64,000 bases of DNA from an uncultured bacterium (lineage in GTDB: Bacteria; Patescibacteriota; Patescibacteriia; Magasanikbacterales; GWA2-37-8). The translations under genes and the position numbers were made by a program. Location of the stretch: NCBI GenBank assembly GCA_937903605.1, contig CALCZC010000007.1, forward strand, positions 189,805-253,804. The letters run 5' to 3'. Numbering within the stretch: position 1 is the stretch's first letter; each line of letters starts with the position of its first letter. Below the pieces are notes generated by a model. It made no database searches. It had not been told where the DNA came from and was given only the letters and a program-made list of their open reading frames with translations. This document shows positions 2,344 through 61,944 of this stretch, in pieces.

Positions 2344-2640
2344 TCAAAATGGCAATAATTCGTCGTACAAATCTTTCCATTGTGGATTATTTTCTTCAAT
2401 CAATCTTAATTTCCATTTTCTATTCCATTTTTTAAGATGTTTTTCTCTTGATATGGCATTATCTATATTATCGTAAACTTCATAATATACCAAAATATGT
2501 ACATTGTATTTTTTGGTAAAGCCTTTTATTGTATTACTTTTATGCTCAAAATTTCTTCTAATCAAATCATTGGTTACGCCGGTATATAATGTACCGTTTT
2601 TCTGACTAGCTAAAATATAGACATAATATTGTTTGGACAT
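2344..2640 (-). CDS. GIY-YIG nuclease family protein (UPF0213/YhbQ-like)
   Basis: YYVYILAS...GTLYTGVTNDLIRR...EHK...KKY GIY-YIG core. Confidence 0.75.
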   Translation of the reverse strand: MSKQYYVYILASQKNGTLYTGVTNDLIRRNFEHKSNTIKGFTKKYNVHILVYYEVYDNIDNAISREKHLKKWNRKWKLRLIEENNPQWKDLYDELLPF

Positions 2641-2756: not shown

Positions 2757-5700
2757 TTATTCCACAGGAACATCTGCCGGAGTTTCAGCCGGGGCTGCAG
2801 GTTCTTCAGTCGGAGAGGTATCTGGTACCGGTTCTTCTACCGGAGGTGTTTCTTCAACCGGCTCTACCGGCGTTTCAGCCGGAGGCGTTTCTGTTACAGG
2901 TTCTATTGGAGTTTCCGCCGGCGCTTCTATCGGCGCGGATGGCGTGGATTCGCCAGAGCTTTCAATCGGCGGTAAAATTATTTCTTCGTTTATTTTATTA
3001 TAAAAATCTTTTAACGATTCTACCGTGCCGTTTGAACTATAAATTTTCGTATCATCCTCCACTATATAGGCCTGCCAATTAAATATTACACTATCGGTCG
3101 CTTGTTCGGTCAAAGTAATTTCAAATCCGCGAGTCGTGACATTTTGTAATTTCCAACGACCGTCAAAATTGAGAGGGGTAATTCCCATCATCGGTGGTAC
3201 GGCATATTCTCCTTCAAAATCAACTTTCACCGAAATATCTCCGGCCATAATTTGCGCTTGACCCAACAAATTAGTTTCCATTTCTTCAGGGATTTCTTCA
3301 ACAATTTCTTCAGTAGTCAACATCGGGGTTTCCTTTGAATCATCTTGCCATACGCGATAATAATCAATATCTATATATTGCGCCCCGCCTCCGGCTACGG
3401 TATTGTTCATAATCATAGAAGTCAACCCGACAGTCGGAATATTGGTCGTTGCTTGACCGCAATAAAACCAATCCACTCCGTCAGTTGCATCGTTATCAAT
3501 ATAAAAATTTATCTCTCCCGTCCCGTCACCATTACTGGAAACTACTTCTATTTTTGCCACCCCAAATACAGCAGTGTTGATAGCTTGTCCCGCACAATCA
3601 ACAACAGTGGAAGCTCCGGCGCGACGCGAAACACCCTGCCACTCTCCGTTGGTGGTGTTATTGGTAAAATAAACACCGTTTAGAGGGTCTGCAGTTTGAG
3701 CTCGAGACAGATTGCTCAAACCAATTCTAAATCGGATATTGGCAGTAACAGCGGACGGAGAAGCTTTGAAAGTTATGACCGGTAAATTGGCGGTATTAAA
3801 GACAAGATTGGCGGTTCCGGCAGTTGTAATCCCATGATATGCCAAACAAGAGTTGGCGCCATTTGTCGCTTGCTGTCTGCCGATACCGTTTACTCCGTTT
3901 GCCACTGAACTCCAAGTACAAGCCGTATTTTCATCAACTGTGAATTGTTGAAAATCACCCCAAGCATACAAAGTATCTGCAGTCACATTTCCTCTACCGC
4001 GCATAAATTCTTCGCCAAAATAAGAATTTCTAGCAATAAAAGCTCCTGTTTCTAAACTCATCCCAAAATTTTGTGATAAATATTTTGCCTCACCCACAAC
4101 AACTCCATCTGAATTTAGCCAATGTTGTAAAGCTGCAGTTTGTCCAACCATACCCTGAACAGCTAAACCAACATTAGTAGTAGTAGCAGTCAAAATATGA
4201 ACCTGACCGGAAAAAACATTTGTATCATTAGCAAAACCACCAAAGCCTATTTCACCAGTTCTAGCTATTTGCATATCTGAATATTCTGTACTACTACCTA
4301 CGGGCTGACGCTTAATACTCCAATAAGGAGTATCGGCTCTGGTATCTAAACGGAAAATAGCACCAATAGAAGAAGTATTTCTATCCCCCAGCTGAGTAGC
4401 ATTAATACCATAGCTCAATAATGTTCCCCCGACTTCTGAGAATAAACCAGCTTTCCATGTAGAACTGTTGGTTACATTCAAACCAATTAAATCAGTGGAA
4501 CCAGCTCGATTAGGGAAAGCATTTGGACCAATTATCCAACCGTCAGTGCCTGAAGTAATTCTGAAATCTCCTTCGTTCAAACTCAATTTAGAAATAGGGG
4601 TAGACGTCCCAATGCCTATATATCCACCATTGGTTATTCTCATTCTTTCATTTTCCGCTTGCCAACCATCAGTCATAAAAATAAGTGCAGCATCGGTACT
4701 GGTAGATTCATTTATAAAATAAGAACCACCCGGAGCTACAGAGTCCCAAACTGCACTTCCTGGCAAAACACCCGCGAAACCTGGAGTGTCTATGCCATAA
4801 TAACCCAATTGTAAAAATTCAACATCACTCCCAGCTTTTAAATTAAATAAAGCTGTTTTGGTACTACTTCCAGATTTTACCTCTGCAGTAAGACCATTAT
4901 CCGGTTCATAAATTCGCAATTTATAATAACCAATATCCGAAGTTCCTATACCGACATGGCCGTATTGATTTACAATTAATGCTGGTTCAGAAGAACTAGT
5001 CATAATACTCAACAACGGATAAGTGGTTGTGCCGGTAATGGATAACATAGCCCCAGGATCTTGCTGATTAATACCTATTGTACCGGTAGAATTCAAAGTT
5101 AAAACATTGTTAAATAATCCCGCATCATCTACAAAATAAAATATAAATTTATCATCTTGATTATCATCTCTTTTTGAAAGTTGCCAATATTTATTATTTT
5201 GGGTTACAAAATTCAAGTTTGTAGCTCCCGCAATAGTTTTTTGTAAAATTGTCATTGCCGGGCCTGCATTATCTGTCACTACATGCAAAGGTGCTTGAGG
5301 AGTAGTAGTACCGATACCAACAGGACCACCAATCACCATTTTACCTGTGGTAGTAACATCGCCATTTACCTGTAAAGCAGTTGAACTCACTAAACCCGAA
5401 ACCATCAAACCGTTTGATAATTCAAATTGTGTAGCAGAATTATTCCAACGTAGATAATTATTAATGCCATTGTTAAAATAAAAATTATTATTTCCTGCAG
5501 TAGTAAATTGAATATTATCACCAAACAAAACCGGACCGGATAAAGTAGATGTTCCGGTGACCGATAAATTTCCACCTAACTTAGAGTGTCCAACTACTTC
5601 AAATTTTACATTACTACTGGTGGCACTATTTCCTACCACTACTGCATAATCTCCTGTTAAGTCCGGATAAACAACATTAGCGGTCGTAGTTACCCAAATA

Positions 5701-8700
5701 CTACTGCCTCCGCCACCAGATGGCCAAGTATTGCGAGTCACTCCGCCCAAAGTGATGGAATCAGCCACCAAAATATCAGTGGTACTCACTGTGCCTAAAA
5801 CATTGATATTGTTTACAGTCAAATCCGAAATCGTAGTTGTAGCCAAAATTGAATTACCCAAAACATTCAGCGTGCCGTCAATATATACCGAAGAACTGGC
5901 ATAAATAATATCTTTGAACCACACCGGAAGAGTTGTGGAAGTTGTCAAAACATTTCCGCCGTTGTGCGAAGCTAACAACCAGTTGGCGGTCGCCCCGCCG
6001 GCACTCGCCAACAAATTTCCGTTCCAATAAAGATCTCCGCCAATGTTGTAAATAGAGTTGGTGGTAGTGGCTGTGGCCGTATCTCCAATATAAATACCTC
6101 CGTCAACGTGGAGTTTGTTAAGCGGATCATAAAGTGCTTGGCCGATACCCACAAACCCGGTTCCTGCCTGAATAGTCAAAATGTCGTCCCCTTCCGCCCC
6201 GACTGAGTCGTCCCAAAGACGAAAATCCAGAGAACTGGTCGGCATATACCAAGACCAACCATTGTCATAACTACCACTATTCACGCGACGGATATAATGT
6301 CCCGCCTCACCGTTACCATTGGCGACAATGGTAATATAATTACGAGAGCTGGTAGGACTGGAGCTTAAATCAGATCCCCAAACTTCCAAAAGATCATAAG
6401 GTGTGGAAGTGCCTATTCCAAAAGAACCCTCAAATGTGGCAAAAGATTTATTTTGTAAATCACCATGACCGTTACTAATAAAATATTCCACTGTGCCGGA
6501 AACTCCGTCCGCAGTATATCTCACCGGGAAAATATCAGTATCTGTTTTGAACTGGTTGGAAGTCAACACTATATGATCGTTGGCCGTATTGGCGGAGCTA
6601 AGGTAAACATTGTTTTCACTAACCCCCGGACCGGCCCAAGCAAAAGAAGAATTGGTGATTTGCACTCCGGATAAAACAGTGGAACTGTTCACATAAGCCG
6701 GAATCAATTTTACGCTTCCCGGAGCCACAGTCAAAATTGTTGCAAATGCCGAATCAACATAAGTATTAAATCTGGCATTATCATGATAAAAAATCTTAAC
6801 GTTATTTGCCGGAGCAGTGGCATAAATCGGAAAAGTGATTACAGGGTCTTTGATAGTAGCAATACTACGTAAACTTTGATTATCGGTATAAAGCACAGAT
6901 AGATCATCGTCACTGTCATAAGTATTTACAAAAATTTCCGGGTTATAGATATAAGCGTTGGTAATAGTTGAGCTGGTTAGATAAAAAATGGTATTTATTT
7001 TTGTCCCAACAGTATTGGTAGTTTGAGTAAAGTTGTATTTATTGGCGGTAAAACTTTCCAAAGTGCCGTTTTCTTGATAAACCACGGCTTGGATATCTTT
7101 ACTACCGTCCGTATATTTCGCACCCACAGTTACATTTTTCAAAACAGATTTACCTGCGCTTTTTATCTCTACCGCATAATCATCCGTATTTTCCAGATCA
7201 ACCATAGATAAAACACTGCCATAAGTCATATCAAACGTGACTTTGCCTTTGATAAAAGTATTACAACCCATACCTCGAACTACTACAAAATCTTTCATCT
7301 GCAAATCTTCGGTGAAAGTTCCGGCGGAAACTGAAACCGTATAAGGATTGGTAGAAGACGATAAAACCGCGGCCGTATCAATAGCGTTTTGGATGGTTTT
7401 TTTTGCTCTGGCCGTACTGTTGCCATCAAAACTGTCTTTACCGCTCACCGCGTTAACATAAATAATATTACCTTCAATAAGCGCGTCATTAATAACGATT
7501 TCCGACCAAACATTGTGATTATTATTGATATTGCGAAGTTCCATGATACCGTTATTGTCACGGAAACCATATCCTGCTGCTCCGGTCGTAGTGCCAAAAT
7601 TAATATAACGATTTTCTCCTTCAATAAAAACATTACCACTAATTGATAACGGGGCCAAAGGAGTGGAAGTACCGATACCAACATAACCGGCATTACCCCC
7701 GCCGGTTCCAACTATCACCATACTTCTTTGTTCGTCGGTTGGATCAACATCAAAAATAATATCTCCGCCCGAGGCCAATGTCGAAAGTAATAAATCACTG
7801 ACTGAATACAACGCCAAACTGCCGGAAATTCCCGGGAGTCCGTCATTCCAGCCGGAACTCAAGGCTGTCAAACCGCCCAATTTTCCCAAATCGTTATACA
7901 AACTAAATTCCGCAGTAGAAGAAGGACCGGAGTTGTTATTGTGAATAGCCAAATTTAATTCATCATTAGTATCTCCGTATAAATAAAAGGCCTTGCCATT
8001 GACAGTGGTAGTATTTATAGCCACTAAACCGTTTTCATCTATAATCACGCGCTCTGTGCCGGCTGTTTGAAAATGAATTTTGTTTTCATTTGGTGAAGCT
8101 TCGGTTTCCACTTTAGTATCTCCGTCCGCGTCTTGAATATATGTGCTAGTATTACCACCGACAACCGGCGAGCCGTTCCAATAAAGTTGCCCGCCAAGAT
8201 TATAAAGGGTGTAAGAAGTTACTGCCGGAGAAGTACTGCAAATAGACAATCCACCTATTAATGTCAAAGCGTTTTTTGGTGTGGTAGTACCAATACCGAT
8301 AAAACCGCTGCTAGACACAAAAATATTACTGGTCGGCGCCCAAGAATCTCCATCCCAATAAGCAAATTGCCCTTCGGTAACACCAGGATCAACAGCAGTC
8401 AAAGGAACACTATTCATAAGATAACTACCGGTAATATCTATATCTCCGTCAACAGTCAATTGTGAATTGGGAGTGGAAGTACCAATACCGACATTGTCAC
8501 TACTGCCTTGTACAAACAAGGCATAATCATTATCCGGCGTCTTAACTTGAAAATCATAATTTCCACTACTACTGTTAAATATCGCTCCTCCTTGGAAATA
8601 CATCAACGAATTAAACCCATCCAAAGTCATTAATTTATTATCAATCAAACTTTTACCATCACCGGTGTCGTTGTTATAAAAATTAAAAAGCAAATTGGAG

Positions 8701-11700
8701 TTTGTTCCATATTTTGACATCATCCAACCTCGCATACTGGAAGTAGAACCAAATCCATCGGTATCCGAATAAAGATACAATCCGGCAATAGCACTCCTAT
8801 CTCCGCTGATTGCGGATAATTTTGCCTCACTGCTAGTCGCTTGAACTCCGAGCATCGTTCTTTCTCCGGGATTGTCATTAACAAAGATTAAACCATTATT
8901 TCTATAATAATCAGCTTGATAAGATAGTTTCGGAAGAATAGCCATGCCCGTATCAATTTTGATAACATCTTGATTGATATTGGAGTGCCTACCAAATAAA
9001 ACCACCCCTTCTTCTTCAGCCAAAGCGTAAAAATAAACATTGGCCGGATTATTGATGCTAATATCGGCACTGGAAAAAGCTCCGTCGCTCGAAGAAATAT
9101 TTATGGACGAACTGTCTTTTTGATCAATATTCAAAGTGGCCGCTTTCTGCAAATAACTGGCCGTAACTTTGGTAGCGGAATCGTCATTGGTAATAATGTT
9201 ATAATCCAAACCCCACATGTTGGAATAACGAATTTCCGCATAAGATCCGTTTCCTTCTATAAAAAGCCCTGTGCCCAAATCGCTGTTGGATCCGAATTCA
9301 CTGCCAACCATATAAAAAGATGACGAACCTGTCGTACTTTTCAAATGTACAAATCTGTTTTCAACATTTTCCATATAAACATTTTCGACTTGAGCTGCAG
9401 CACCGTTGTCTAAATTCACACCAATATTGCCGATATTATAAAAATCTGATTTGAAAATATTTAACAAGTTGGCTACTTGCATATTTATACCTGTCTCTGT
9501 GTCTATAATCACCAATTCGGAAAAATCCATCCAAACACTGCCGGTATTACTAACTCTAATAGCATCGCAACCGGATGTATTTCGAAAACCGACGGTTTGT
9601 GAACCGTCAATGGTCAACAAACGAATAGAAAAATCATTTTCTTCAGAAAAATTTATTTCAAAAATAGGACCGGGAGAACTGACCAGGTCCGTTGTCGGAC
9701 GAATCATCACCGCTTCTGTACTCATACCTCGAATACTTTTTATGTGAGTACTGGTAACAACCAAAGTAGATGAAACATCATAAACTCCGGGATAAATATT
9801 TATTATAGTGTCATAATCAACACCATTAGCAAAAGCAACAGCGTCTTCCAAATTATCAAAATCTCCCCCGCTTTTGGCCACATTGATGATATGGTCAACT
9901 TTGGTCGAAAAATTATTCCAACCACCACTCGCGTTCTTCCATTGCATCACCCCGGCATTATCGCGAATACCATAACCTACTGTCCCTGTATTATTTCCGA
10001 AATTCAAATACCTATCCGCGCCGGTAATAGAAAGATTGCCATAAACATCCAAAGCGGAAAGAGGAGAAGTGGTACCGATACCGACAGAACCTCCAAAATA
10101 ATTCACAGATGCTGTACCATCGGAATAAATATTAAAATTGGAATTTTGAGCAAAATTTTGTTCTTCGATATAAAGTCCGTACAAACTTCCGATTGTTCCC
10201 GTTCCCGTGCCGCTGGTCGGGTTATTAATTCTCATTCCAAAAGCCGTTCCAATATTTCCTCCTTCTATACCAAAATCTGATTGAATAGCCGAAGCATTGG
10301 AAATAATCCCATTACCTATACCGTTTTCAATATAACCGCTTAAGCCCAAAGCCAATCCTATGTTTCCGCTAAAATTTACATCTCCGGAACCATTAGTCGC
10401 TGTTTGTCCTCTCAATCCGAAAGCAACACCAACACTTCCCGTGGAATTGTCCAACTCGGCAGAAGAAATTTGTCCCAAAATCATGTTAACCGATCCTGAA
10501 CCTTGATGAATAACTTGATTTAAAAGACCGGCGATAACTTCAAAATTATTATTATTACCTTCATTGGTTGTAACACTGAGCAAAGTATTGATTGTTGTAG
10601 AAGCATCTTCTATAGGATCAAGCTCTATACCCATAACATTACCCAAAGTAAAGCCGTCTCCTGAATTTGATAAATTTGTATATTTTTTATAAGAAGCAAA
10701 AACCGAACCGCTTGGAATCTCTGCGGGAAAATTTTCTCCCACCATCAATTGAGTGATCGTGGTGGTGGACAAAGTGGAACTTCCTATAACATTCAAGTTG
10801 TTATTTATTATCAAAGCTCCGGTCATGGTATCGCCTGCAACATTAACCCAATTGTCCGTACCGGAGACCATAAAAGAGGTACTAGTAAAACCACTCCCCA
10901 CCAAACTCGTGCCGTTAAACCAAATAAATTCATTGCTCGCAAAACTGCCGGCATTGGTGCCGCCATTGGCAATCGGCAAAATTCCCGCGATATCGGAAGT
11001 CAGGTTTACTGTTGAAGTAGACCAAACACCGTTGTTAATTTTTACAAAACCTGTCCAACCGCTAGTGTCTTGTCCTGTCCCGCCATAATTGGTCGCAATA
11101 ATATCACCCTGCCATGTACCGGCGGAAATAGTACCAAAAGAAGATGCTCCGGTTAAGATAAGATTGGCAATAGTAGTCGTTGCCATCAGAGTATTTCCGG
11201 TAATGGCTAAATTTCCACTAATACTGGAAGTGGCAGTGCTACTGTTCATGGTTAAGTTTGCACCTGTAAATCCGCCGGATAAAATATTTAAATTCAAATT
11301 GTTATCCAGAGCCAAAAGCGTATTGGCCACAGCAGTGGAAGAAGCATGAAAACCGTCAACTCTGTCGGAATTGAAAGCATACGGATGAGTCGCCAAAATC
11401 ACACGCGGACTGGCTTCGTTGTCACTTTCTATTTTTACCGCCAAATAATAAGTACCTGTGCTAAAATCCAAATAACTCGGAAAAGCGCCGCAAGCACCAA
11501 GATTTACGGTAAAATATCCTTGGGCATCAGGTTGAACTTTGGGACAATTTCCGGAACTGCCGTCATAGACTTCAGTCCAAAGCAAAGGTCCGGCGGAACT
11601 TGGCGTATCTGTAGGAACTCCGGTGTTTGCGTTGTTATAAATAGAAAATTGAATAGTGGTAGAAGTAGTAATCGGCGTTCCTCCGTTATCTCGCAATCTG

Positions 11701-11852
11701 CCTTGGTAATTTATCAGGTTTGGAATAGCTAAAACTTCTTTACCTATAAAAGAAAAAACCGTCACTAACGCAACAAAAAACATGGCTTTCTGTATATTCA
11801 TCTTTAGAAAGTTAACAAGGAGTTTGGATTTTATTCCCCTCCGAATATTCAT
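2757..11852 (-). CDS. Giant (3031 aa) secreted cell-surface protein with beta-helix domains, recurring GIGT(S/T)TP motif and Pro/Glu/Thr-rich C-terminus
   Basis: Uninterrupted 9.1-kb ORF with an N-terminal signal peptide. Two beta-helix cap-like motifs (AVSGKDSFDGNSTARAKKTIQNAIDTA; AKSGGDFDNLEDAVAFANG). At least 8 copies of VGIGTSTP-like motifs. Tail (ETP/VEP)n. Confidence 0.8.
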   Translation of the reverse strand: MNIRRGIKSKLLVNFLKMNIQKAMFFVALVTVFSFIGKEVLAIPNLINYQGRLRDNGGTPITTSTTIQFSIYNNANTGVPTDTPSSAGPLLWTEVYDGSSGNCPKVQPDAQGYFTVNLGACGAFPSYLDFSTGTYYLAVKIESDNEASPRVILATHPYAFNSDRVDGFHASSTAVANTLLALDNNLNLNILSGGFTGANLTMNSSTATSSISGNLAITGNTLMATTTIANLILTGASSFGTISAGTWQGDIIATNYGGTGQDTSGWTGFVKINNGVWSTSTVNLTSDIAGILPIANGGTNAGSFASNEFIWFNGTSLVGSGFTSTSFMVSGTDNWVNVAGDTMTGALIINNNLNVIGSSTLSTTTITQLMVGENFPAEIPSGSVFASYKKYTNLSNSGDGFTLGNVMGIELDPIEDASTTINTLLSVTTNEGNNNNFEVIAGLLNQVIHQGSGSVNMILGQISSAELDNSTGSVGVAFGLRGQTATNGSGDVNFSGNIGLALGLSGYIENGIGNGIISNASAIQSDFGIEGGNIGTAFGMRINNPTSGTGTGTIGSLYGLYIEEQNFAQNSNFNIYSDGTASVNYFGGSVGIGTTSPLSALDVYGNLSITGADRYLNFGNNTGTVGYGIRDNAGVMQWKNASGGWNNFSTKVDHIINVAKSGGDFDNLEDAVAFANGVDYDTIINIYPGVYDVSSTLVVTSTHIKSIRGMSTEAVMIRPTTDLVSSPGPIFEINFSEENDFSIRLLTIDGSQTVGFRNTSGCDAIRVSNTGSVWMDFSELVIIDTETGINMQVANLLNIFKSDFYNIGNIGVNLDNGAAAQVENVYMENVENRFVHLKSTTGSSSFYMVGSEFGSNSDLGTGLFIEGNGSYAEIRYSNMWGLDYNIITNDDSATKVTASYLQKAATLNIDQKDSSSINISSSDGAFSSADISINNPANVYFYALAEEEGVVLFGRHSNINQDVIKIDTGMAILPKLSYQADYYRNNGLIFVNDNPGERTMLGVQATSSEAKLSAISGDRSAIAGLYLYSDTDGFGSTSSMRGWMMSKYGTNSNLLFNFYNNDTGDGKSLIDNKLMTLDGFNSLMYFQGGAIFNSSSGNYDFQVKTPDNDYALFVQGSSDNVGIGTSTPNSQLTVDGDIDITGSYLMNSVPLTAVDPGVTEGQFAYWDGDSWAPTSNIFVSSSGFIGIGTTTPKNALTLIGGLSICSTSPAVTSYTLYNLGGQLYWNGSPVVGGNTSTYIQDADGDTKVETEASPNENKIHFQTAGTERVIIDENGLVAINTTTVNGKAFYLYGDTNDELNLAIHNNNSGPSSTAEFSLYNDLGKLGGLTALSSGWNDGLPGISGSLALYSVSDLLLSTLASGGDIIFDVDPTDEQRSMVIVGTGGGNAGYVGIGTSTPLAPLSISGNVFIEGENRYINFGTTTGAAGYGFRDNNGIMELRNINNNHNVWSEIVINDALIEGNIIYVNAVSGKDSFDGNSTARAKKTIQNAIDTAAVLSSSTNPYTVSVSAGTFTEDLQMKDFVVVRGMGCNTFIKGKVTFDMTYGSVLSMVDLENTDDYAVEIKSAGKSVLKNVTVGAKYTDGSKDIQAVVYQENGTLESFTANKYNFTQTTNTVGTKINTIFYLTSSTITNAYIYNPEIFVNTYDSDDDLSVLYTDNQSLRSIATIKDPVITFPIYATAPANNVKIFYHDNARFNTYVDSAFATILTVAPGSVKLIPAYVNSSTVLSGVQITNSSFAWAGPGVSENNVYLSSANTANDHIVLTSNQFKTDTDIFPVRYTADGVSGTVEYFISNGHGDLQNKSFATFEGSFGIGTSTPYDLLEVWGSDLSSSPTSSRNYITIVANGNGEAGHYIRRVNSGSYDNGWSWYMPTSSLDFRLWDDSVGAEGDDILTIQAGTGFVGIGQALYDPLNKLHVDGGIYIGDTATATTTNSIYNIGGDLYWNGNLLASAGGATANWLLASHNGGNVLTTSTTLPVWFKDIIYASSSVYIDGTLNVLGNSILATTTISDLTVNNINVLGTVSTTDILVADSITLGGVTRNTWPSGGGGSSIWVTTTANVVYPDLTGDYAVVVGNSATSSNVKFEVVGHSKLGGNLSVTGTSTLSGPVLFGDNIQFTTAGNNNFYFNNGINNYLRWNNSATQFELSNGLMVSGLVSSTALQVNGDVTTTGKMVIGGPVGIGTTTPQAPLHVVTDNAGPAMTILQKTIAGATNLNFVTQNNKYWQLSKRDDNQDDKFIFYFVDDAGLFNNVLTLNSTGTIGINQQDPGAMLSITGTTTYPLLSIMTSSSEPALIVNQYGHVGIGTSDIGYYKLRIYEPDNGLTAEVKSGSSTKTALFNLKAGSDVEFLQLGYYGIDTPGFAGVLPGSAVWDSVAPGGSYFINESTSTDAALIFMTDGWQAENERMRITNGGYIGIGTSTPISKLSLNEGDFRITSGTDGWIIGPNAFPNRAGSTDLIGLNVTNSSTWKAGLFSEVGGTLLSYGINATQLGDRNTSSIGAIFRLDTRADTPYWSIKRQPVGSSTEYSDMQIARTGEIGFGGFANDTNVFSGQVHILTATTTNVGLAVQGMVGQTAALQHWLNSDGVVVGEAKYLSQNFGMSLETGAFIARNSYFGEEFMRGRGNVTADTLYAWGDFQQFTVDENTACTWSSVANGVNGIGRQQATNGANSCLAYHGITTAGTANLVFNTANLPVITFKASPSAVTANIRFRIGLSNLSRAQTADPLNGVYFTNNTTNGEWQGVSRRAGASTVVDCAGQAINTAVFGVAKIEVVSSNGDGTGEINFYIDNDATDGVDWFYCGQATTNIPTVGLTSMIMNNTVAGGGAQYIDIDYYRVWQDDSKETPMLTTEEIVEEIPEEMETNLLGQAQIMAGDISVKVDFEGEYAVPPMMGITPLNFDGRWKLQNVTTRGFEITLTEQATDSVIFNWQAYIVEDDTKIYSSNGTVESLKDFYNKINEEIILPPIESSGESTPSAPIEAPAETPIEPVTETPPAETPVEPVEETPPVEEPVPDTSPTEEPAAPAETPADVPVE

Positions 11853-12000
11853 AATGTTTTTACTATATTATTATACCATATATACAATTTTCAAAAAACC
11901 TCTCAGCTAGCCAAAATAAATAAACTGTGGATAACTTGTGTATAAACAAAAAACTCGCTTTTTTCGCGAGTTTTAATTCAAAAATATAAATTCAAAAATC

Positions 12001-12717
12001 CTAAATATTAGCGAGCGCTGTTATAGTAATTACCCCGTTATAACTACCTGATTTTTGATCTATTGGCGCGCTGGCACGATAATCAACCACAGTCACGGTA
12101 GTGCCCCAATTACATGTCGGACAATTCATAAATTGCGAATTTACAGTTGGAAATCCGCCATATTTAGCATTTAGAAGAGTGTCATCACTACCCCACCAAG
12201 CATTGTTATAATTGGAAGTCGTGCCTGATTGTTTTACACGAAAAGACAGATTGTTTCCCGGTGTATTTGTGGCATTGCCGGAACCGCTCGGATTCCAAGA
12301 AACATAATCCGGGAAATCAACCGATGAATCAACGGTCAAATCTACAGTTGAACTTACATCCTCTCTTTTGACTGACAAATTATATCCACTTAATGAACCG
12401 GGTATAGTAACATAAACCGCAGAACTGGCAAAAGTTGGTATATTTGGCAATATTTCTCCAAAATTTACAGTCGGCTCAACAGTAATTACCATCATAGGAA
12501 ATTCCATTACCAATCCGTGATCATAAATATAGTTTGTACTGGTGGCTCTACCTACCGCCGGATCACCAGCTCCACCTTTTAATTGAAAACCACTGGAAGT
12601 AGCGTCGTGATAGATAGTGCCGTAAGTTTGTCTATCAATTTGATTCTGCGCCAAAACTACCTGAGAAGTTATCAGGCACGATATCAAAATAACGGCTAAT
12701 TTTAGAGAAAAAGACAT
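12001..12717 (-). CDS. Secreted protein, WxL-like C-terminus (paralog A)
   Basis: Signal peptide; C-terminal SYNGVITITALANI; paralogous to 12964..13650. Confidence 0.7.
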   Translation of the reverse strand: MSFSLKLAVILISCLITSQVVLAQNQIDRQTYGTIYHDATSSGFQLKGGAGDPAVGRATSTNYIYDHGLVMEFPMMVITVEPTVNFGEILPNIPTFASSAVYVTIPGSLSGYNLSVKREDVSSTVDLTVDSSVDFPDYVSWNPSGSGNATNTPGNNLSFRVKQSGTTSNYNNAWWGSDDTLLNAKYGGFPTVNSQFMNCPTCNWGTTVTVVDYRASAPIDQKSGSYNGVITITALANI

Positions 12718-15810: not shown

Positions 15811-16098
15811 ATGTTTTTTTACGTTTATATTATACAAAGTTTAAAAAATAAAAGCCTTTATGTTGGCTATACCCAAGATTTAATAAAAAGATTAGACCAA
15901 CACAATGATGGCAATAGTACGTATACAAAAAAATATATACCTTGGCAATTAATTCACTACGAAGCTTACCGCAATGAAATAGATGCAAAACGCAGAGAAA
16001 AATATCTCAAAACAAATCAGGGGAGCCGTTTATTGAAGCGTATGTTAAAAGAATACTTTTATAATCAAAATTCCAATGATTCAGATTCAAAAACTTAA
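15811..16098 (+). CDS. GIY-YIG nuclease family protein (second copy)
   Basis: FYVYIIQS...SLYVGYTQDLIKRLDQHN...KKY...EKYLK. Confidence 0.75.
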   Translation: MFFYVYIIQSLKNKSLYVGYTQDLIKRLDQHNDGNSTYTKKYIPWQLIHYEAYRNEIDAKRREKYLKTNQGSRLLKRMLKEYFYNQNSNDSDSKT

Positions 16099-26937: not shown

Positions 26938-27078
26938 ATAGCATCTCCCCTCTCCTTACAAAGCCTGGTCCCATACCGACCCGCAAGGGTCTGGTGTCGG
27001 GAGAGAGGGTTAGGGTGAGGTTAGGTTTGGCTTCCCTCTCCTTACGAAGGAAAGGGTTAGGGTGAGGTCTTACTATAT
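26938..27078. repeat. GC-rich repeat pair containing GGGTTAGGGTGAGG
   Basis: ccctctccttac(a/g)aag...gggttagggtgagg appears twice. Confidence 0.6.
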
Positions 27079-28624: not shown

Positions 28625-28760
28625 TCCCCTCCTCTTCCTCAAGAGGAGGGTTAGGGTGGAGTCTTAGTCCCCTCCTTTTATCTAAGAGGAGGGTTAGGGT
28701 GGAGTCTTAGTCCCCTCCTTTTATTTAAGAGGAGGGCTAGGGTGGAGTGGTCAAAAAGAC
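28625..28760. repeat. Three tandem copies of a roughly 43-bp GC-rich hairpin unit
   Basis: cccctcc(t)tttat(c/t)taagaggagggttagggtggagtcttagt, three copies. Confidence 0.7.
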
Positions 28761-32823: not shown

Positions 32824-33034
32824 TACAAATTAAATAAAAAATCCGCTGTAAGGCGGATTTTTTATTTAATTTAATTTTCAATTTTTAATTTAAAATTTTT
32901 AATTAATTTTCAATTTTTTACACAATCTTGCAATCTTTAAATCTTTAAATCTTGCAATTTTACAGACTTGCCAATACCCCCAAAATTTGATAAATTTGAT
33001 ATGCTAAAAAACTCTAATTTTTAAACTATTTTTT

Positions 33035-33493
33035 ATGCAAAAACCTCGCGAAAACGCTATTTCTTGGGACGAATGTTTCATGCGTATGGCCAATGTGATA
33101 GCAGAGCGTAGCAAAGACCCTAGTACTCAAGCCGGAGCAGTTGTCGTGACCGCCGATAACGTGGTAGTGGGCCTTGGATATAACGGTTTTCCTCGTGGAA
33201 TAGACAGCAACGATTTACCATGGGACAGAGAAGGAGAATTACAAAATACTAAATACGCTTATGTCTGTCATGCTGAAGAAAACGCTATTTATAATGCCAA
33301 CGGTCCGGTTCGTGATTGTAAAATTTATTGTACACTTTTTCCTTGTAATGAATGTGCTAAAACCATTATCCAAAACGGTATACGCGAAGTAATTTTTGAA
33401 AGCGATAAATACCACGACACCCCAGCTTGTATCGCCTCTCGCAAAATGTTTGATTTAGCCGGTGTAACTTATAGAGAATACAAAAATCGATAA
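33035..33493 (+). CDS. dCMP deaminase (cytidine/deoxycytidylate deaminase family)
   Basis: CHAEENAI and PCNECAKTI zinc-binding motifs. Confidence 0.8.
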   Translation: MQKPRENAISWDECFMRMANVIAERSKDPSTQAGAVVVTADNVVVGLGYNGFPRGIDSNDLPWDREGELQNTKYAYVCHAEENAIYNANGPVRDCKIYCTLFPCNECAKTIIQNGIREVIFESDKYHDTPACIASRKMFDLAGVTYREYKNR

Positions 33494-33591
33494 ACGATTT
33501 AAATAATTTAAAGATTCAAAGATTTAAAGATTGTAAAAACCGTACAAAATCTTTTAATCTTTCAATCTTACAATCTTTCAATCTCAAACTT

Positions 33592-34143
33592 ATGTCAAAA
33601 ATTATCCTCGGTTTTGTCGGTGAAATTTCTTGTGGAAAATCCACGGCTACACAATATCTCAAAAACAAGTATGGTGCTGTGACTTTCAAATTCTCTGATT
33701 GTTTACGCGATGTCGCCTCTCGCATGCATATCGAAAAAACACGTGAAAATCTTCAGCTCATTTCCACTGTTTTACGCCAAAATTTTGGCGATGATTTATT
33801 GTCAAAAATTTTAGCTGAAGATGTTCGCAACGCAGATGCGGAAATTATTATTACCGAAGGTGTTCGCAGATTAAGCGACATCACTTATCTCAAAGATGTT
33901 CCGGGATTCAAACTCATAGCCATCAAAACCGATGAACGTATCCGTTTTGAGAGATTAACCCAAAGAAGCGAAAATATTGACGATAAAAATAGAACTTGGG
34001 AAGAATTTCAAAAAGATGGCCAAAGAGAAACCGAATTACGTATCAAAGAAACAATGGATCAAGCCGATTTTACTCTGGATAACAACGGCTCTGCCGAAGA
34101 GTTACACGCGCAAATAGATGCTTTAATGACCCAACTACAATAA
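33592..34143 (+). CDS. P-loop nucleotide kinase (dNMP kinase-like)
   Basis: Walker A GEISCGKST; embedded in the thymidylate-synthesis gene cluster. Confidence 0.5.
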   Translation: MSKIILGFVGEISCGKSTATQYLKNKYGAVTFKFSDCLRDVASRMHIEKTRENLQLISTVLRQNFGDDLLSKILAEDVRNADAEIIITEGVRRLSDITYLKDVPGFKLIAIKTDERIRFERLTQRSENIDDKNRTWEEFQKDGQRETELRIKETMDQADFTLDNNGSAEELHAQIDALMTQLQ

Positions 34144-36525: not shown

Positions 36526-36581
36526 ACACCAAATTGAAAATTCATTAAAAATTGTAAAATTAAAAATTAAAAATTCTACTT

Positions 36582-37295
36582 ATGTTCATAATGCTCGACG
36601 CAATAGACGGAGGCGGTAAAGGTACCGTTATCTCCGCTTGGAAAGAATATATTACCTCCCAAGGCAACCCTATTTTTGATCTGAAAGATTATTGGGAACA
36701 AAACAAACAATACCCGGAGATAAATGAACTGCGATCTTATGATTTTGTTTTTACCGCCGAGCCGACTTATGCCGGTATCGGTCAAGTAATCCGTGATGAA
36801 CTTATCAGGACCGGCACAGACTATCCTCCGGAAGCTGTGGCTCAGGCTTATTCTTTGGATCGTTTGGTACTTTATAAAAAAATTATTTTACCACTTTTGG
36901 CTCAAGACAAATTTATCATTCAAGACAGAGGTTTTTCCACCTCTTTGGCTTATCAAAACGCCCAAACTCCGGAATTAACCTTTGAAAAACTACTGGCCAT
37001 GCCGGGAAACACTCTGGCGCTAAAACACCGCCCTGATTATCTCATTCTTTTGACCACCGAGCCGGAAGAAGCCATGCGCCGACTGGATGCTCGTGGAGAT
37101 AAAAAAGACAACGTTATCTTTGAAAACCTTGATTTTCAAAAGAAAACCGCCGCCACCTTTATGTCTCCTGGTTACCAAGAAATTTTTACCCAAGCCGGGA
37201 CCAAAATATTTTACTTGTCTACAATGGGTGAAATTGATATAATAAGACAAAAGGCTAAAGAACTTTTAGCCAATATTATTAATCAAAAAGTTTAA
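36582..37295 (+). CDS. tmk: Thymidylate kinase
   Basis: P-loop DGGGKGT, DRGFSTSLAYQ motif. Confidence 0.8.
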   Translation: MFIMLDAIDGGGKGTVISAWKEYITSQGNPIFDLKDYWEQNKQYPEINELRSYDFVFTAEPTYAGIGQVIRDELIRTGTDYPPEAVAQAYSLDRLVLYKKIILPLLAQDKFIIQDRGFSTSLAYQNAQTPELTFEKLLAMPGNTLALKHRPDYLILLTTEPEEAMRRLDARGDKKDNVIFENLDFQKKTAATFMSPGYQEIFTQAGTKIFYLSTMGEIDIIRQKAKELLANIINQKV

Positions 37296-48545: not shown

Positions 48546-48671
48546 TTTGTCAATTTATTTTAAATACTATCAACATCTCTAATAAATTGCCAAAACTCTA
48601 CAAACCTTATATAATAAGGATATTAAATTACAATCTTGTAATCTTTAAATCTTGCAATTTTGCAACCTCTT

Positions 48672-49749: not shown

Positions 49750-49910
49750 AACTATTTCAAAACTAACTATCTTTCTGAGCGCAGCGAAGAATCACTTATA
49801 GTTAAACTTATTTTTCAAAGTATTGTTTAAGGGATCCTTCGTTTCACTCAGGATGACGCCTGCCTGAAAATTGATAATTGAAAATTAATTAAAAATTGTA
49901 AAATTAAAAA

Positions 49911-50879
49911 TTGAAAATTTTATTTATGCTCGATTTACTCATTATAGGCGGTTCCGCTGCCGGTTGCAGTGCAGCTATTTACGCAGCTCGTAGAAAACTT
50001 AACTTCAAACTTATTACTCACGATGTCGGTGGTGAAGTAGCTTATGCCGGAGAAGTCAGTAATTGGCTGGGTATTAAAAACATTTATGGTTATGAATTGG
50101 CGCAAAATTTTGCCGCCCATGTTCGTGCCAATGGTGTAGAAATAGAAGAAGGTTGGAAAGTTTTTGCTATCCAAAAAGAAGAAGTCGGTTTTAGTATAAA
50201 AGCTCGTAACAGCAAAGGAGAGGAACGATCTGAATCCGCCAAAACCGTGCTTATTGCCACCGGTATTCATCCCCGACATTTGGGTGCAAAAAATGAAGAA
50301 GAGCTCTTTCATAAGGGAGTTACTTATTGCACTGTTTGTGATGGTCCTCTTTTCAAAAATAAAACCGTGGCCGTACTTGGCGGAGGTAACGCAGCACTAG
50401 AGGCCGCTGTCATGATGAGTGGTATTGCTCAAAAAGTGCACTTGATGACTATCGAGCCCGATACTCCTGAAAAAAAATTCGGCTTTCCAACAGGCGATGA
50501 TGTTTTGATAGAAAAAGTAAAAAATTTGCCTAACGTGGAAATTATCCATTATGCAGATACTTTTGAATTTATCGGCGAAAATAGATTAGCTGGTTTGAAA
50601 TATCGCGATTTACGTGACAATACAAAAGAAGAAAAAGAATTAGCAATTGAAGGGGCGATGATCCACGTCGGTATGGTGCCAAATTCAGAATTTATAGACA
50701 TCGTAGAAAAAGACAGGGCTAAACAAATTATTGTTGATAGAAATTGTCATACCAATGTGCCAGGGATTTTTGCCGCTGGCGATGTTACCGACACTCCCTA
50801 TAAACAAATTATCGTAGCTGCAGGACAAGGAACGGTGGCAGCCTTAGCAGCTATAGAGTATCTTAATAAACAAAAGTAG
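49911..50879 (+). CDS. trxB: Thioredoxin-disulfide reductase
   Basis: FAD motif IIGGSAAGCSAA; redox CTVCDG; NAD(P) motif VLGGGNAALEAA. Confidence 0.75.
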   Translation: MKILFMLDLLIIGGSAAGCSAAIYAARRKLNFKLITHDVGGEVAYAGEVSNWLGIKNIYGYELAQNFAAHVRANGVEIEEGWKVFAIQKEEVGFSIKARNSKGEERSESAKTVLIATGIHPRHLGAKNEEELFHKGVTYCTVCDGPLFKNKTVAVLGGGNAALEAAVMMSGIAQKVHLMTIEPDTPEKKFGFPTGDDVLIEKVKNLPNVEIIHYADTFEFIGENRLAGLKYRDLRDNTKEEKELAIEGAMIHVGMVPNSEFIDIVEKDRAKQIIVDRNCHTNVPGIFAAGDVTDTPYKQIIVAAGQGTVAALAAIEYLNKQK

Positions 50880-51285: not shown

Positions 51286-51405
51286 ATCCCAATTTCCAAT
51301 TCCCAATGTCCAATGAATGACCAATGCTTAAATGATTAAATTTTGGACATTAGGATTTGGGATTTGATTGGTCATTGGTCATTGGGGTTTGGTCATTTTA
51401 AAAAT
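51286..51405. repeat. Inverted arrays of CCAAT/ATTGG words forming a roughly 120-bp imperfect palindrome
   Basis: cccaatttccaattcccaatgtccaatgaatgaccaatg ... cattggtcattggtcattggggtttggtca. Confidence 0.6.
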
Positions 51406-51446
51406 CTTGCAATCTTGTAATCTTTCAATCTTTAAATTTTTCTTTT

Positions 51447-52433
51447 ATGTTCAACTTAATCACCATCGGCGATGCGGTCGTTGATAATCACATAATCCTT
51501 GATGAAGCAGAAGTAGAATGCAGTGTTGATAAAAAAACCTGTCGTTTGTGTTTGGATTATGCGGCCAAAGTACCGGTTAGTGAGAGCTTTCAAAATATTG
51601 GCGGCAATGCTGTCAATGTAGCTATTGGCGCTAGCAAACTAGGGCTCTCTACCGCTGTCTTAACCGATCTAGGCAAAGATGCTAATGGTAAAACTGTAAT
51701 TTCCGAACTCAAAAAATATGGTGTAGATACAAAATTGACAAAGCTAAATCCTAAAAATGAAACTCGTTTTGCAATAGTTCTCAATTACAAAGGTGAGCGT
51801 ACTATTTTATCTTCACACAAGAAAAAAATATATTCTTGGCCGGAAAATCTCCCGGCAACTGATTGGATTTACTACACTTCTTTATCTGACGGTTTTGAAG
51901 TTTTACAAAAAAATCTTTTTACTCATCTCAAAAAACACCCAACCGTTCGTCTAGCTTATAATCCCGGATCATTTCAATTAAAAAATTCTTTGAATAGCGT
52001 TTTGGAAACTATCAAAAAAACCGATGTTCTGATAGTCAATCTTCAAGAAGCGGAAATTATTTTAAATACCACTTGGCAAAAAGAAAAAAGCATTGTTACC
52101 ATCATTCATAAATTACTCGCTCTAGGAGCAAAAGAAGTGGTGATTACCGATGCGGAAAAAGGAGCTTATACCGGCAATCAAGACGGTATTTGGAAAATAG
52201 AATCATTTCCGGTAAAAGTAGTGGCCAAAACCGGCGCTGGCGACGCATTTTCCTCCGGTTATTTATCCGCACGACAATATGATCATGATATTGCCGATGC
52301 TCTAGTCTGGGGCATTGCTAATAGTTGTAGTGTAATAAGTAGTTTCGGCTCACATGCAAAGTTGTTGGAAAAAGATAATATAAAAAATTATATAAAAAGA
52401 TACAGCGATATAACACCAAAGAAAATCTCTTAA
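51447..52433 (+). CDS. PfkB-family carbohydrate kinase (ribokinase-like)
   Basis: GGNAVNVAIGASKLG and GAGDAFSSGYL motifs. Confidence 0.75.
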   Translation: MFNLITIGDAVVDNHIILDEAEVECSVDKKTCRLCLDYAAKVPVSESFQNIGGNAVNVAIGASKLGLSTAVLTDLGKDANGKTVISELKKYGVDTKLTKLNPKNETRFAIVLNYKGERTILSSHKKKIYSWPENLPATDWIYYTSLSDGFEVLQKNLFTHLKKHPTVRLAYNPGSFQLKNSLNSVLETIKKTDVLIVNLQEAEIILNTTWQKEKSIVTIIHKLLALGAKEVVITDAEKGAYTGNQDGIWKIESFPVKVVAKTGAGDAFSSGYLSARQYDHDIADALVWGIANSCSVISSFGSHAKLLEKDNIKNYIKRYSDITPKKIS

Positions 52434-53946: not shown

Positions 53947-54661
53947 AAAAATTAATTTGTCTTGTTTCTTCTATCCCCCTCATCCTGTTCAAATCCATTT
54001 TTCTCCCCGTAAAAAAGTCTATTGATTGGGATATGGAATGAAAACTCAATTCCGGGCCAAGTAAACATAAGCCGTATTCAAACATTCTTATTTTTTCTCT
54101 GATTTCATCCGCCAAAATAGGGTGATCCTGTTCATTGAGGGCTATTTCTCGCAAACCTTTCAATTTATCTTCGATCTGTTCCAATAATTTATTATATTCA
54201 TCCACTTTTTCCAAAAATCTTTTTTTCTCTGTGCTGGCAATTTGTTGATTGACGTATTTTTTTAAATCTTCTTGCATTTTGAGTAGTGCTTTATACAATT
54301 CCACTCTTTCTTCACTTTCAAAATAAGCGGCCGGACGACCGGAATGCAAATCACGCAAACTCAAACCATAATCTTTGTAATGAAGATACTTTTCTTTTAA
54401 ATCTGGAGATAAGTATGGTTGTAAAAACTCATCACCGTAAGCATTTTCCGCAATCGTCAAAAAATCCTTATAGGCCTGATTCCACGGCCAAAGAATATAT
54501 CCGAAGGTTATCATCGTATCCTCTATTTGGTGTGGGGTTAACGATTGATTGGTTTCCAATTGCCACATCGCCTCTTTTATTTTTTCCTTTTCTTCTTTAG
54601 GAAAAAGAGGAGGGATGTTGCTATAAAAGTATCTGAATAGTTGAATTGTATAATTAGACAT
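53936..54661 (-). CDS. Hypothetical protein
   Basis: 241-aa ORF; predicted helical; no recognised motif. Confidence 0.5.
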   Translation of the reverse strand: MSNYTIQLFRYFYSNIPPLFPKEEKEKIKEAMWQLETNQSLTPHQIEDTMITFGYILWPWNQAYKDFLTIAENAYGDEFLQPYLSPDLKEKYLHYKDYGLSLRDLHSGRPAAYFESEERVELYKALLKMQEDLKKYVNQQIASTEKKRFLEKVDEYNKLLEQIEDKLKGLREIALNEQDHPILADEIREKIRMFEYGLCLLGPELSFHSISQSIDFFTGRKMDLNRMRGIEETRQINFYDE

Positions 54662-54705
54662 GTGAAAAATTTTTAATTTTTAATTTTACAATTTTTAATT
54701 AATTT

Positions 54706-55209
54706 TCAATTTACAATTTTGCAATCTTTAAATCTTGTAATCTTGTAATTTTCGGCGATGTAATACATCGCCACTCCCGCTGCCACCGACACATTCAAAC
54801 TGTTCTTCTTCCCATGCATGGGAATTTCTACCGCTTTGTCGCAGTATTTCAATTGGTCTTTGGTAACACCGGTTTTTTCGTTTCCAAAGACCAATACACA
54901 AGGGAATTTTGGTTTCCAAGAAAACATATCCACACTGGTTTTTGTTTGTTCCAGCGCTACTATATTATACCCTTTTTCTTTCAATTGTTTAAGTAATTTT
55001 CCAGTTTGTTTGCAATATTCCCATTTTACGAAATTTTCCGCCCCGAGAGACACTTTGAGAAGACTAGGATGAGGTGGATATGGAGAATAGCCGGTAATAT
55101 AAACTTTATCAACTCCTGCACCATCAGCCGTGCGTAAAATCGCGCCGACATTATGTGCGCTTCTAATATTTGGCACTACTACTACAAATTTTTCTTTAGA
55201 CTCTTGCAT
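54706..55209 (-). CDS. SpoU/TrmH-class RNA 2'-O-methyltransferase (TrmL-like size)
   Basis: VVVPNIRSAHNVGAILRTADGAG, VFGNEKTGV, LNVSVAAGVAMY SPOUT motifs. Confidence 0.7.
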   Translation of the reverse strand: MQESKEKFVVVVPNIRSAHNVGAILRTADGAGVDKVYITGYSPYPPHPSLLKVSLGAENFVKWEYCKQTGKLLKQLKEKGYNIVALEQTKTSVDMFSWKPKFPCVLVFGNEKTGVTKDQLKYCDKAVEIPMHGKKNSLNVSVAAGVAMYYIAENYKITRFKDCKIVN

Positions 55210-61816: not shown

Positions 61817-61944
61817 ATAAATTACAAGATTTAAAGATTGAAAGATTTAAAGATTAACTATCTTTATTTTACCAACAAATCTTTTAAAAAGCAACTAAAA
61901 AAGCCCGTTTGAGACGGACTTTTTTAGGCTTAATTAAGCAAAAA

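Follow-up and report, generated by a model that had tools for sequence, protein, structure and literature searches.

The largest gene on a 64-kb stretch of DNA from contig CALCZC010000007.1 (assembly GCA_937903605.1; hereafter the window, meaning all of the stretch that was analyzed) probably encodes a very large fiber belonging to the superfamily of mosaic adhesive trimers (MATs), carried on the surface of a Magasanikbacteria-type Patescibacteria cell. The likeliest function of this giant protein is that of a long surface fiber, presumably built from three chains, which would bind glycans of a host or substrate. How the mostly unculturable bacteria of the Candidate Phyla Radiation (CPR)/Patescibacteria find and hold their hosts is largely unknown, and placement among the MATs gives the protein a concrete function open to testing and ties the surface biology of CPR cells to the fibers by which predatory bacteria recognize prey and to the receptor-binding proteins of phages. 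The family itself is known and recently defined; the giant protein is a new, unusually large member of it in a new phylum. A search of the literature on CPR together with tail fibers or giant proteins turned up nothing relevant. An earlier sequence-only reading of this DNA did not name the MAT family and proposed instead a Firmicute-type adhesin tethered by WxL proteins; we find the MAT family to be the better frame.

The open reading frame (ORF) begins with an ATG, is read from position 11852 down to 2757, and encodes 3031 amino acids (aa) with zero internal stops, confirming the single uninterrupted ORF reported earlier and adding its strand (minus), which had been missing. At least six independently assembled contigs, up to ~300 kb in size, carry the identical protein, as shown from the ENA assemblies ERZ724084 and ERZ724082, and collinear orthologues of 2879–3845 aa are present in other genomes; an ORF made chimeric or frameshifted by assembly is thereby excluded. 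The DNA of the window is that of an ordinary chromosome, with nusB, rnc, uvrD, tgt, several aminoacyl-tRNA synthetase genes, gatB and rpoC. The giant gene sits between nusB/rnc and housekeeping genes, and this synteny is conserved across genomes. From the named relatives and genome records, the window belongs to Patescibacteria of the Magasanikbacteria clade, which supports the earlier view of a CPR bacterium with a giant secreted protein at its surface, surface display being a prediction.

The N-terminus carries the first evidence for a MAT fiber. The sole strongly hydrophobic stretch of the giant protein lies within aa 18–47; it is preceded by a basic N-region and ends in V-L-A|I-P, and a comparable small-x-small site is found directly ahead of the conserved N-domain in all relatives. 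We read this leader as a cleaved Sec signal peptide, a prediction that agrees with the earlier one. At the next residue begins a conserved domain rich in beta structure and ~130 residues long (aa 44–175), again in all relatives, and this is the most conserved part of the fiber family. All 21 Bdellovibrio MATs have their N-domain directly after the signal peptide (PMC10769870). When each of 19 family members was scanned singly against NCBIfam, the model NF053851 (Bdello_MAT_N) matched 16 of them, with a best E of 3.5e-9 and scores under the curated cut-off, and for these it was the sole matching model. The giant protein itself scored 17.3 bits over its whole length and 21.5 bits with the domain alone, below the curated cut-off of 60, and we therefore place it in the wider superfamily only and not in the Bdellovibrio subfamily. 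A profile of the N-domain found 39,035 representative proteins (16,644 of them with E no higher than 1e-10) out of 1.84 billion, nearly always at aa ~30–175 and in proteins of up to 5516 residues. With ~39,000 representative metagenome proteins, the fiber family is very large and for the most part unannotated. Relatives that share the N-domain have a Peptidase_S74 end or YadA-head repeats. For the scan of genomes a narrower N-domain alignment was used, because the diverse alignment was too variable. Against the PDB, the N-domain profile gave only a chance-level match to CBM77 (E 0.05), and a phmmer search of PDB sequences with the whole giant protein gave no match.

The second line of evidence is a short motif that recurs along the shaft. 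The sequence-only reading described it as (V/I)GIGT(S/T)(S/T)P..(K/Q)L.V.G, recurring at least eight times. The full pattern matches the giant protein once and the core GIGT[ST][ST]P seven times, so the count holds only for looser forms: [VIF]GIG[TQ] has nine matches, at aa 590, 1121, 1185, 1391, 1811, 1901, 2178, 2300 and 2412, and a relaxed motif likewise has nine, one of them a further, degenerate copy (aa 2259). With composition shuffles the motif means were 0.001–0.07, such that 9–10 copies are seen against ~0.06 expected, and the relaxed motif occurs 244 times across the first 33 relatives retrieved. Self-BLAST of the giant protein at E up to 1e-3 found no internal repeats, and repetition is thus confined to the short motif. 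We built a profile from 54 motif-centered windows of the fiber family and searched it against all PDB sequences, which gave seven matches at E < 0.01 and one more at chance level. Bdellovibrio MAT structures account for five of the seven (8OND, 8OML, 8OJN/8ONB/8ONC, 8OL4/8ONF and 8ON4), with 8OND (Bd2133) matched in three stretches at E 1.3e-24; the other two are structures of the myelin regulatory factor MyRF (7DC3 and 5YHU). In Bd3182, the stretches matched, RVGVGTTAPTSALH and FFGINTAAPAYNIH, are the two crystallographic capping loops named in PMC10769870, so that the structural role of the motif is known. The capping loop lies on the edges of an intertwined trimeric beta-helix and is common to S74 and non-S74 MATs and to MyRF (PMC10769870, Caulton et al. 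2024). The literal printed MAT consensus, V-G-G/N-pi-X-X-P-X-X-X-L, has zero sites in the giant protein; direct alignment to the crystal sequences gives a loop of the same length as here, VGxGxxxPxxxL. The earlier suggestion that the motif is shared with proteins of tail-fiber type is thereby borne out, the motif being the capping loop found in MAT and S74 fibers.

Between the capping loops, the shaft contains two right-handed parallel beta-helices, in accordance with the sequence-only reading. A single-chain AlphaFold2 model covering aa 634–1830 was confident only at aa 653–898 (predicted local distance difference test, pLDDT, 75–93) and aa 1483–1623 (pLDDT 70–86), and in both parts a short helix is followed by stacked rungs with three short strands per ~23-residue rung. 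In Foldseek searches of the PDB, the model matched phage tailspikes (CBA120 TSP2, AS12 gp42, Det7, phiAB6, P22 and Sf6), PL6 alginate lyases, pectin lyase and pectin methylesterases, with E from 4e-6 to 1e-3 for the tailspikes, PL6 lyases and pectin methylesterases. Sequence-level searches with the Pfam beta-helix families found no match in the giant protein.

The distal tip is variable and of non-S74 type: Pfam Peptidase_S74 (PF13884) has no match in the giant protein and is present in the relatives P0018, P0022, P0029 and P0030 (P numbers denote homologous proteins). A tip-specific homologue search gave three proteins only, and the alignments behind the structure predictions were consequently shallow; the model of aa 2578–2957 has a mean pLDDT of 61, with a core of 70–92. 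At this moderate model confidence the tip has a ConA-like lectin/glucanase beta-sandwich fold. It matched L-type lectins in the PDB (Foldseek E ~1e-5, target TM-score up to 0.55) and, better than these, predicted structures in BFVD from uncultured phage proteins (E 1e-10, target TM-score 0.69) whose annotations read SO2946-like C-terminal domain, ConA-like, tail repeat, tropism determinant or tip attachment protein. Pfam SO2946-like_C (PF22237) matches the homologue P0035 at E 2.7e-7. Beyond this domain, aa 2862–2945 resemble Pfam H_lectin (PF09458) at E 2.4e-4 and 21.6 bits, the gathering score being 24. Among 29 copies of the terminal domain in the family, 15 match the same model (best E 1.6e-5), and the H-lectin-like domain closes 55 of 197 other family proteins. 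In the orthologues P0006–P0011, an insert of ~100–150 residues lies between the ConA-like and terminal domains; it is coiled-coil-like, with a weak likeness to trimeric coiled coils (reovirus sigma-1 and P22 gp26). In the giant protein (aa 2839–2861) and the relatives closest to it, nothing but a short acidic linker lies there. The protein ends, as noted earlier, in an acidic Pro-rich tail (P 20, E 16 and T 9 among the last 71 aa), and its C-terminus has no LPXTG-type sorting signal and no transmembrane segment. Tail composition is similar in relatives, with a terminal P-(V/I)-E in P0002–P0006, P0008 and P0036. We know of no sorting signal that resembles such a Pro/Glu tail ending in P-(V/I)-E.

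Comparison with its closest relatives showed the giant protein to be a mosaic, in which blocks of ~100% amino-acid identity alternate with blocks of 0–50%. The divergent blocks are aa 361–560, aa 2281–2600 and the two beta-helices, the first in P0005 and the second in P0003. Both beta-helices are swapped cassettes in these relatives; for beta-helix 2, P0003 has 30–50% amino-acid and 46–64% nucleotide identity against 84–100% in the rest of the gene. Identity to P0002–P0005 is ~60–100% over aa 2178–2280 and drops to 0–40% from aa 2281, and from aa 2321 the array region is 68–85% identical to P0006, a protein itself only ~58% identical overall. At the DNA level, tracts 99–100% identical to P0002 (aa 601–660, 1501–1860 and 2611–2820) abut tracts of 59–66%, and two modules stand in reverse order in P0002. 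Some breakpoints lie on, or no more than ~20 residues from, the motif sites at aa 590, 1811, 1901, 2178 and 2300, and the remaining ones at domain borders near aa 360, 1470, 2585 and 2840. At the equivalent of aa ~2300–2580, P0003–P0005 and P0007–P0009 carry another cassette (…TDPDNPNRTGRYMDTYNIATL…YLQITSDTGSVTYFDDDGG…), which by eye is like a pre-peptidase C-terminal or collagen-binding domain. That these relatives carry a different cassette here suggests that whole binding domains are exchanged, and cassette exchange between strains likely marks the parts that set specificity. We considered local sources of this variation. For a diversity-generating retroelement, the 64-kb window has no template/variable repeat pair and no long repeat involving the gene, although reverse transcriptase was not specifically searched. 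For silent donor cassettes, the window has no other motif-bearing ORFs or N-domain copies. With neither repeat pair nor silent cassette in the window, the variation appears to come from recombination between lineages and not from a local diversifying element.

These features suggest how the fiber might be built and used. The protein would be exported by the Sec pathway with loss of its signal peptide, and the N-domain, by analogy with Bdellovibrio MATs, would hold the fiber at the cell surface. Three chains would intertwine into a long beta-structured shaft with modules delimited by the GIGTxxPxxxL capping loops. A crystallized 370-residue fragment of Bd2133 is 142 Angstrom long (PMC10769870), and scaling from it gives a rough fiber length of the order of 100 nm. 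The two tailspike-like beta-helices along the shaft could bind or cut surface polysaccharide, and the distal ConA-like and H-type-lectin-like domains may bind glycans of host or substrate. Recombination among co-existing lineages, which swaps and permutes modules, often at capping loops, could serve to change specificity. Given its MAT family membership and the module swapping among related strains, the protein is a good candidate for deciding attachment to hosts or surfaces.

Several observations weigh against this placement. The Bdello_MAT_N match of the giant protein is weak, at 17–21 bits against 60, and spans only the first ~35 residues. The motif-bearing shaft modules have pLDDT below 50 as a single chain, which fits an obligate oligomer without proving it. 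At the tip, with its mean pLDDT of 61, the lectin-fold matches are modest (TM-scores 0.45–0.69), the H_lectin match is below the Pfam threshold, and no solved structure in the PDB is matched by a terminal-domain profile. Finally, going by the acidic Pro-rich tail, the C-terminus rather than the N-terminus could face the wall.

The nearest comparison is with the non-S74 MATs of Bdellovibrio bacteriovorus (e.g. Bd2133, PMC10769870), which like the giant protein have a signal peptide followed by a ~130-aa beta-rich N-domain, repeated capping loops, interchangeable tips that include lectin-type folds, and signs of module swapping. The giant protein is ~3 times longer than these (3031 against ~1000 aa); the longest MAT in the cross-taxon table of PMC10769870 has 1915 aa, and Patescibacteria/CPR are absent from that table. 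It differs further in its two tailspike-like beta-helices mid-fiber, its double tip and its acidic Pro-rich tail, and its gene differs in having a CPR host, a linked cluster of WxL-like, DUF916-like and cohesin/dockerin genes, and an N-domain far below the Bdellovibrio-specific cut-off. YadA-type trimeric autotransporters are also long modular fibers; relatives that share the N-domain carry YadA_head repeats, and the coiled-coil insert of the orthologues weakly resembles trimeric coiled coils. Unlike these, the giant protein has no membrane-anchor beta-barrel and no YadA repeats by Pfam, and no outer membrane is expected.

The neighboring genes bear on how such a fiber may be anchored. The WxL-like gene A is co-oriented with the giant gene, 148 nt upstream, as the sequence-only reading had it. 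A hidden Markov model (HMM) from paralogue A matches paralogue B (E 1.8e-32), and with HMM searches we found WxL-like A directly upstream of the fiber gene in 11 of 11 Magasanikbacteria-type loci (L001–L011). Remote relatives of it lie 2–5 kb upstream of related fiber genes in eight further CPR loci, and several of these relatives have weak, mostly sub-threshold dockerin-like C-termini. The neighbor arrangement is kept in orthologous loci that are ~58% identical. In the divergent operon that starts with paralogue B, the 317-aa protein matches WxLIP_PGBD (DUF916) at E 4e-4 to 1.2e-3, in the same region in three of three orthologues, with 19–21 bits against a gathering score of 27.3. Besides the gene for the Ig/dockerin-like protein, the operon holds genes for two membrane-anchored proteins, and one of these, the 271-aa protein, has cohesin-bearing orthologues: that in L003 matches Cohesin at E 2.8e-5, above the cut-off, and that in L004 is listed with PF00963. 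In L003 (1975–3684) and L004 (1861–3603), the divergent operon runs on into genes for a T2SSE-type (pilus/secretion) ATPase and a 382-aa protein; the window instead has an SH3_3 protein and then uvrD after the operon.

These neighbors are the substance of the alternative put forward by the sequence-only reading, in which a beta-helical adhesin is held on the wall by WxL-domain proteins, as in the Csc/WxL complexes of Firmicutes, which comprise WxL proteins, DUF916 WxL-interacting proteins and a small LPXTG protein. As in Firmicutes, a cluster of small secreted beta-rich proteins stands beside a large surface protein, with a DUF916-like neighbor among them. In all orthologous loci examined, WxL-like A is the adjacent, co-oriented gene, a protein of DUF916 architecture (signal peptide, sub-threshold WxLIP_PGBD, C-terminal membrane anchor) is encoded in the divergent operon, and the linkage of remote WxL-like relatives to fiber genes extends to other CPR lineages. 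The linkage is therefore real and conserved, and it makes a physical partnership between WxL-like A and the giant protein plausible. However, Pfam WxL (PF13731), searched at E up to 0.1–1, matches neither the giant protein, its C-terminus included, nor paralogues A and B, their orthologues or their remote relatives, and none of the 22 homologues of the WxL-like neighbors has any precomputed Pfam domain. Co-transcription of WxL-like A with the giant gene is also doubtful, because the stretch between them contains a terminator-like hairpin and, apart from it, a promoter-like site; the latter is predicted so close upstream of the giant ATG that it would imply a very short leader. The giant protein differs from the Firmicute arrangement in having no LPXTG signal, and the cluster in bearing cohesin- and dockerin-like modules, which to our knowledge classical Csc loci lack. 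Moreover, WxL tethering leaves the MAT N-domain and the capping loops unaccounted for. The Firmicute-type reading is thus only partly supported: as stated, with WxL proteins holding a beta-helical adhesin, it is not, and we think it unlikely; what it contributes to the MAT fiber is a proposal for anchoring.

For the MAT fiber, the conserved neighbors are of interest in their own right, as the Bdellovibrio study did not identify a partner of the N-domain (PMC10769870). The WxL-like, DUF916-like and cohesin/dockerin proteins are candidates for this unknown anchor. We tentatively raise the broader possibility, which we hold to be somewhat doubtful, that CPR bacteria use recombination-shuffled MAT-type fibers of ~100 nm as a host-range determinant, with the neighbor cluster (WxL-like A and B, the DUF916-like membrane protein and the cohesin/dockerin pair) serving as the cell-side receptor of the N-domain.

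A second alternative is that the protein is mainly a depolymerase of surface polysaccharide, with beta-helices that cut capsule, exopolysaccharide, wall glycans or an environmental polymer and the rest acting as scaffold. It draws on the best structural matches of the beta-helices, which are active tailspikes (CBA120 TSP2, AS12 gp42, phiAB6 and Det7) and the lyases and esterases named above. Pfam lyase and hydrolase families have no match in the giant protein, though, beta-helix domains also serve in binding alone, and recognition is the role indicated by the MAT architecture and by the tip with its two lectin-like domains. Cutting and recognition can also coexist, as they do in phage tailspikes, and as the main role we regard depolymerization as improbable. 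A structural envelope protein of S-layer or sheath type, with no specific ligand, would suit a very large, secreted, Thr/Ser/Gly/Asn-rich protein with no enzymatic annotation; it is very unlikely in view of the cassette-type strain variation, which is unlike a lattice-forming protein, the lectin-like terminal domains and the homology to adhesive fibers. Phage tailspikes and S74 fibers (K1F endosialidase, T5 pb1, CBA120 TSP2 and the P22 tailspike) share beta-helices and mosaic evolution with the giant protein, S74 proteins and MyRF share its capping-loop motif, and uncultured phage tail proteins share its ConA/SO2946-like tip folds. A phage or prophage tail fiber or a tailocin fiber is nonetheless extremely improbable and effectively refuted, common as the capping loop, tailspike-like beta-helices and tip folds are among phage receptor-binding proteins, because the giant protein is cellular, with a predicted Sec-type signal peptide, and its gene lies in a housekeeping context (nusB/rnc) of conserved synteny with no phage genes among the surrounding chromosomal genes, while 3000 aa searched by tblastn in 50,697 phage records, and a search of PHROGs, gave no match. 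With the phage records empty, the link to phages rests on motif and fold and not on sequence.

Table. Features of the giant fiber gene and its surroundings, in window coordinates (position 1 is the first letter of the stretch; P numbers denote homologous proteins)
Feature	Position	Strand	Remarks
Giant fiber gene	2757..11852	minus	9,096 nt; 3031 codons plus stop
Predicted Sec signal peptide, aa 1-43	11724..11852	minus	Basic N-region, hydrophobic core, VLA|IP site
Conserved N-domain, aa 44-175	11328..11723	minus	Related to MAT N-domain; presumed cell-proximal anchor
Proximal shaft, aa 176-360	10773..11327	minus	Thr/Ser/Gly-rich; YGGTG, LPIANGGT and GDTMTG motifs; conserved among orthologues
Variable Gly/Asn-rich cassette, aa 361-589	10086..10772	minus	~100% identical to P0003, 50-65% to P0002, P0004 and P0005
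Capping-loop motif 1, aa 590	10044..10085	minus	VGIGTTSPLSALDV; breakpoint in P0007, P0010, P0011 and P0012
Beta-helix domain 1, aa 651-1100	8553..9902	minus	Tailspike/pectin-lyase-like; confident core aa 653-898
Capping-loop motif 2, aa 1121	8451..8492	minus	
Capping-loop motif 3, aa 1185	8259..8300	minus	Followed by LYNLGGQLYWNG
Capping-loop motif 4, aa 1391	7641..7682	minus	
Beta-helix domain 2, aa 1455-1800	6453..7490	minus	Confident part aa 1483-1623
Capping-loop motif 5, aa 1811	6381..6422	minus	Identity to P0003 restored at this site
Capping-loop motif 6, degenerate, aa 1901	6105..6152	minus	VGIGQALYDPLNKLHV, followed by IYNIGGDLYWNG
Short-module array, aa 2178-2585	4098..5321	minus	Each module opened by the motif (aa 2178, 2259, 2300, 2412); most variable region
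ConA-like (SO2946-like_C type) lectin-fold domain, aa 2588-2838	3339..4091	minus	AlphaFold2 core pLDDT 70-92
Terminal H-type-lectin-like beta-sandwich domain, aa 2862-2945	3018..3269	minus	Pfam H_lectin, sub-threshold
Pro/Glu/Thr-rich acidic tail, aa 2961-3031	2760..2972	minus	Ends in ...DVPVE
Promoter-like site, TTGAAA ... TGgTATAAT	11867..11894	minus	Prediction from consensus scan and sequence
Terminator-like hairpin and T-run	11950..11974	minus	In the gap from WxL-like A to the giant gene
WxL-like paralogue A, 238 aa, secreted	12001..12717	minus	Conserved upstream neighbor, candidate partner; no Pfam match
WxL-like paralogue B, 228 aa	12964..13650	plus	First gene of divergent operon; no Pfam match
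DUF916-like protein, 317 aa	13674..14627	plus	Signal peptide and C-terminal membrane anchor (hydrophobic segment read from sequence)
Secreted protein with Ig-like repeats and dockerin-like C-terminus, 367 aa	14620..15723	plus	Dockerin_1 E 3.6e-4, just below cut-off
Membrane-anchored protein, 271 aa	16983..17798	plus	Window copy without match; orthologues carry cohesin

Other elements were noted in the window. Two small stand-alone GIY-YIG nuclease ORFs of 98 and 95 aa lie at 2344–2640 (minus strand), just 3' of the giant gene, and at 15811–16098 (plus strand), within the divergent operon of surface proteins; none is listed at these places in the orthologous loci L003 and L004, and the two may therefore be mobile insertions. 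Short intergenic arrays with an 8-nt period (unit ~AATCTTKM, e.g. TTGCAATCTTTAAATCTT) occur in both orientations at 32909–32969, 33491–33593, 48617–48669, 51388–51448, 54700–54752 and 61814–61855; they sit just upstream of several ORF starts and may represent a shared regulatory or promoter element. A 43-nt unit, in which a GC hairpin (TCCCCTCCTC...GAGGAGGG) is followed by TTAGGGTGGAGTCTTAG, is found at 27031–27073 and, in three tandem copies, at 28625–28753, the tandem repeat being 3' of a Trp/Tyr-type tRNA synthetase gene. An AT-rich element of ~55 nt, AAATTGAAAATTAATTAAAAATTGTAAAATTAAAAATTGAAAATT, is present in four copies, direct and inverted, with 86–95% identity (32875–32916, 36531–36587, 49867–49931 and 54658–54720). 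Near-identical or closely related copies of the CPR fiber locus are also carried by the metagenome-assembled genome (MAG) records L005, L012, L016, L018, L019 and L021, in L005 with a 98% identical N-domain and a WxL-like neighbor; the titles of these records, 'uncultured Gammaproteobacteria', 'Micavibrio' or 'Bdellovibrionales', are probably taxonomic mislabels.

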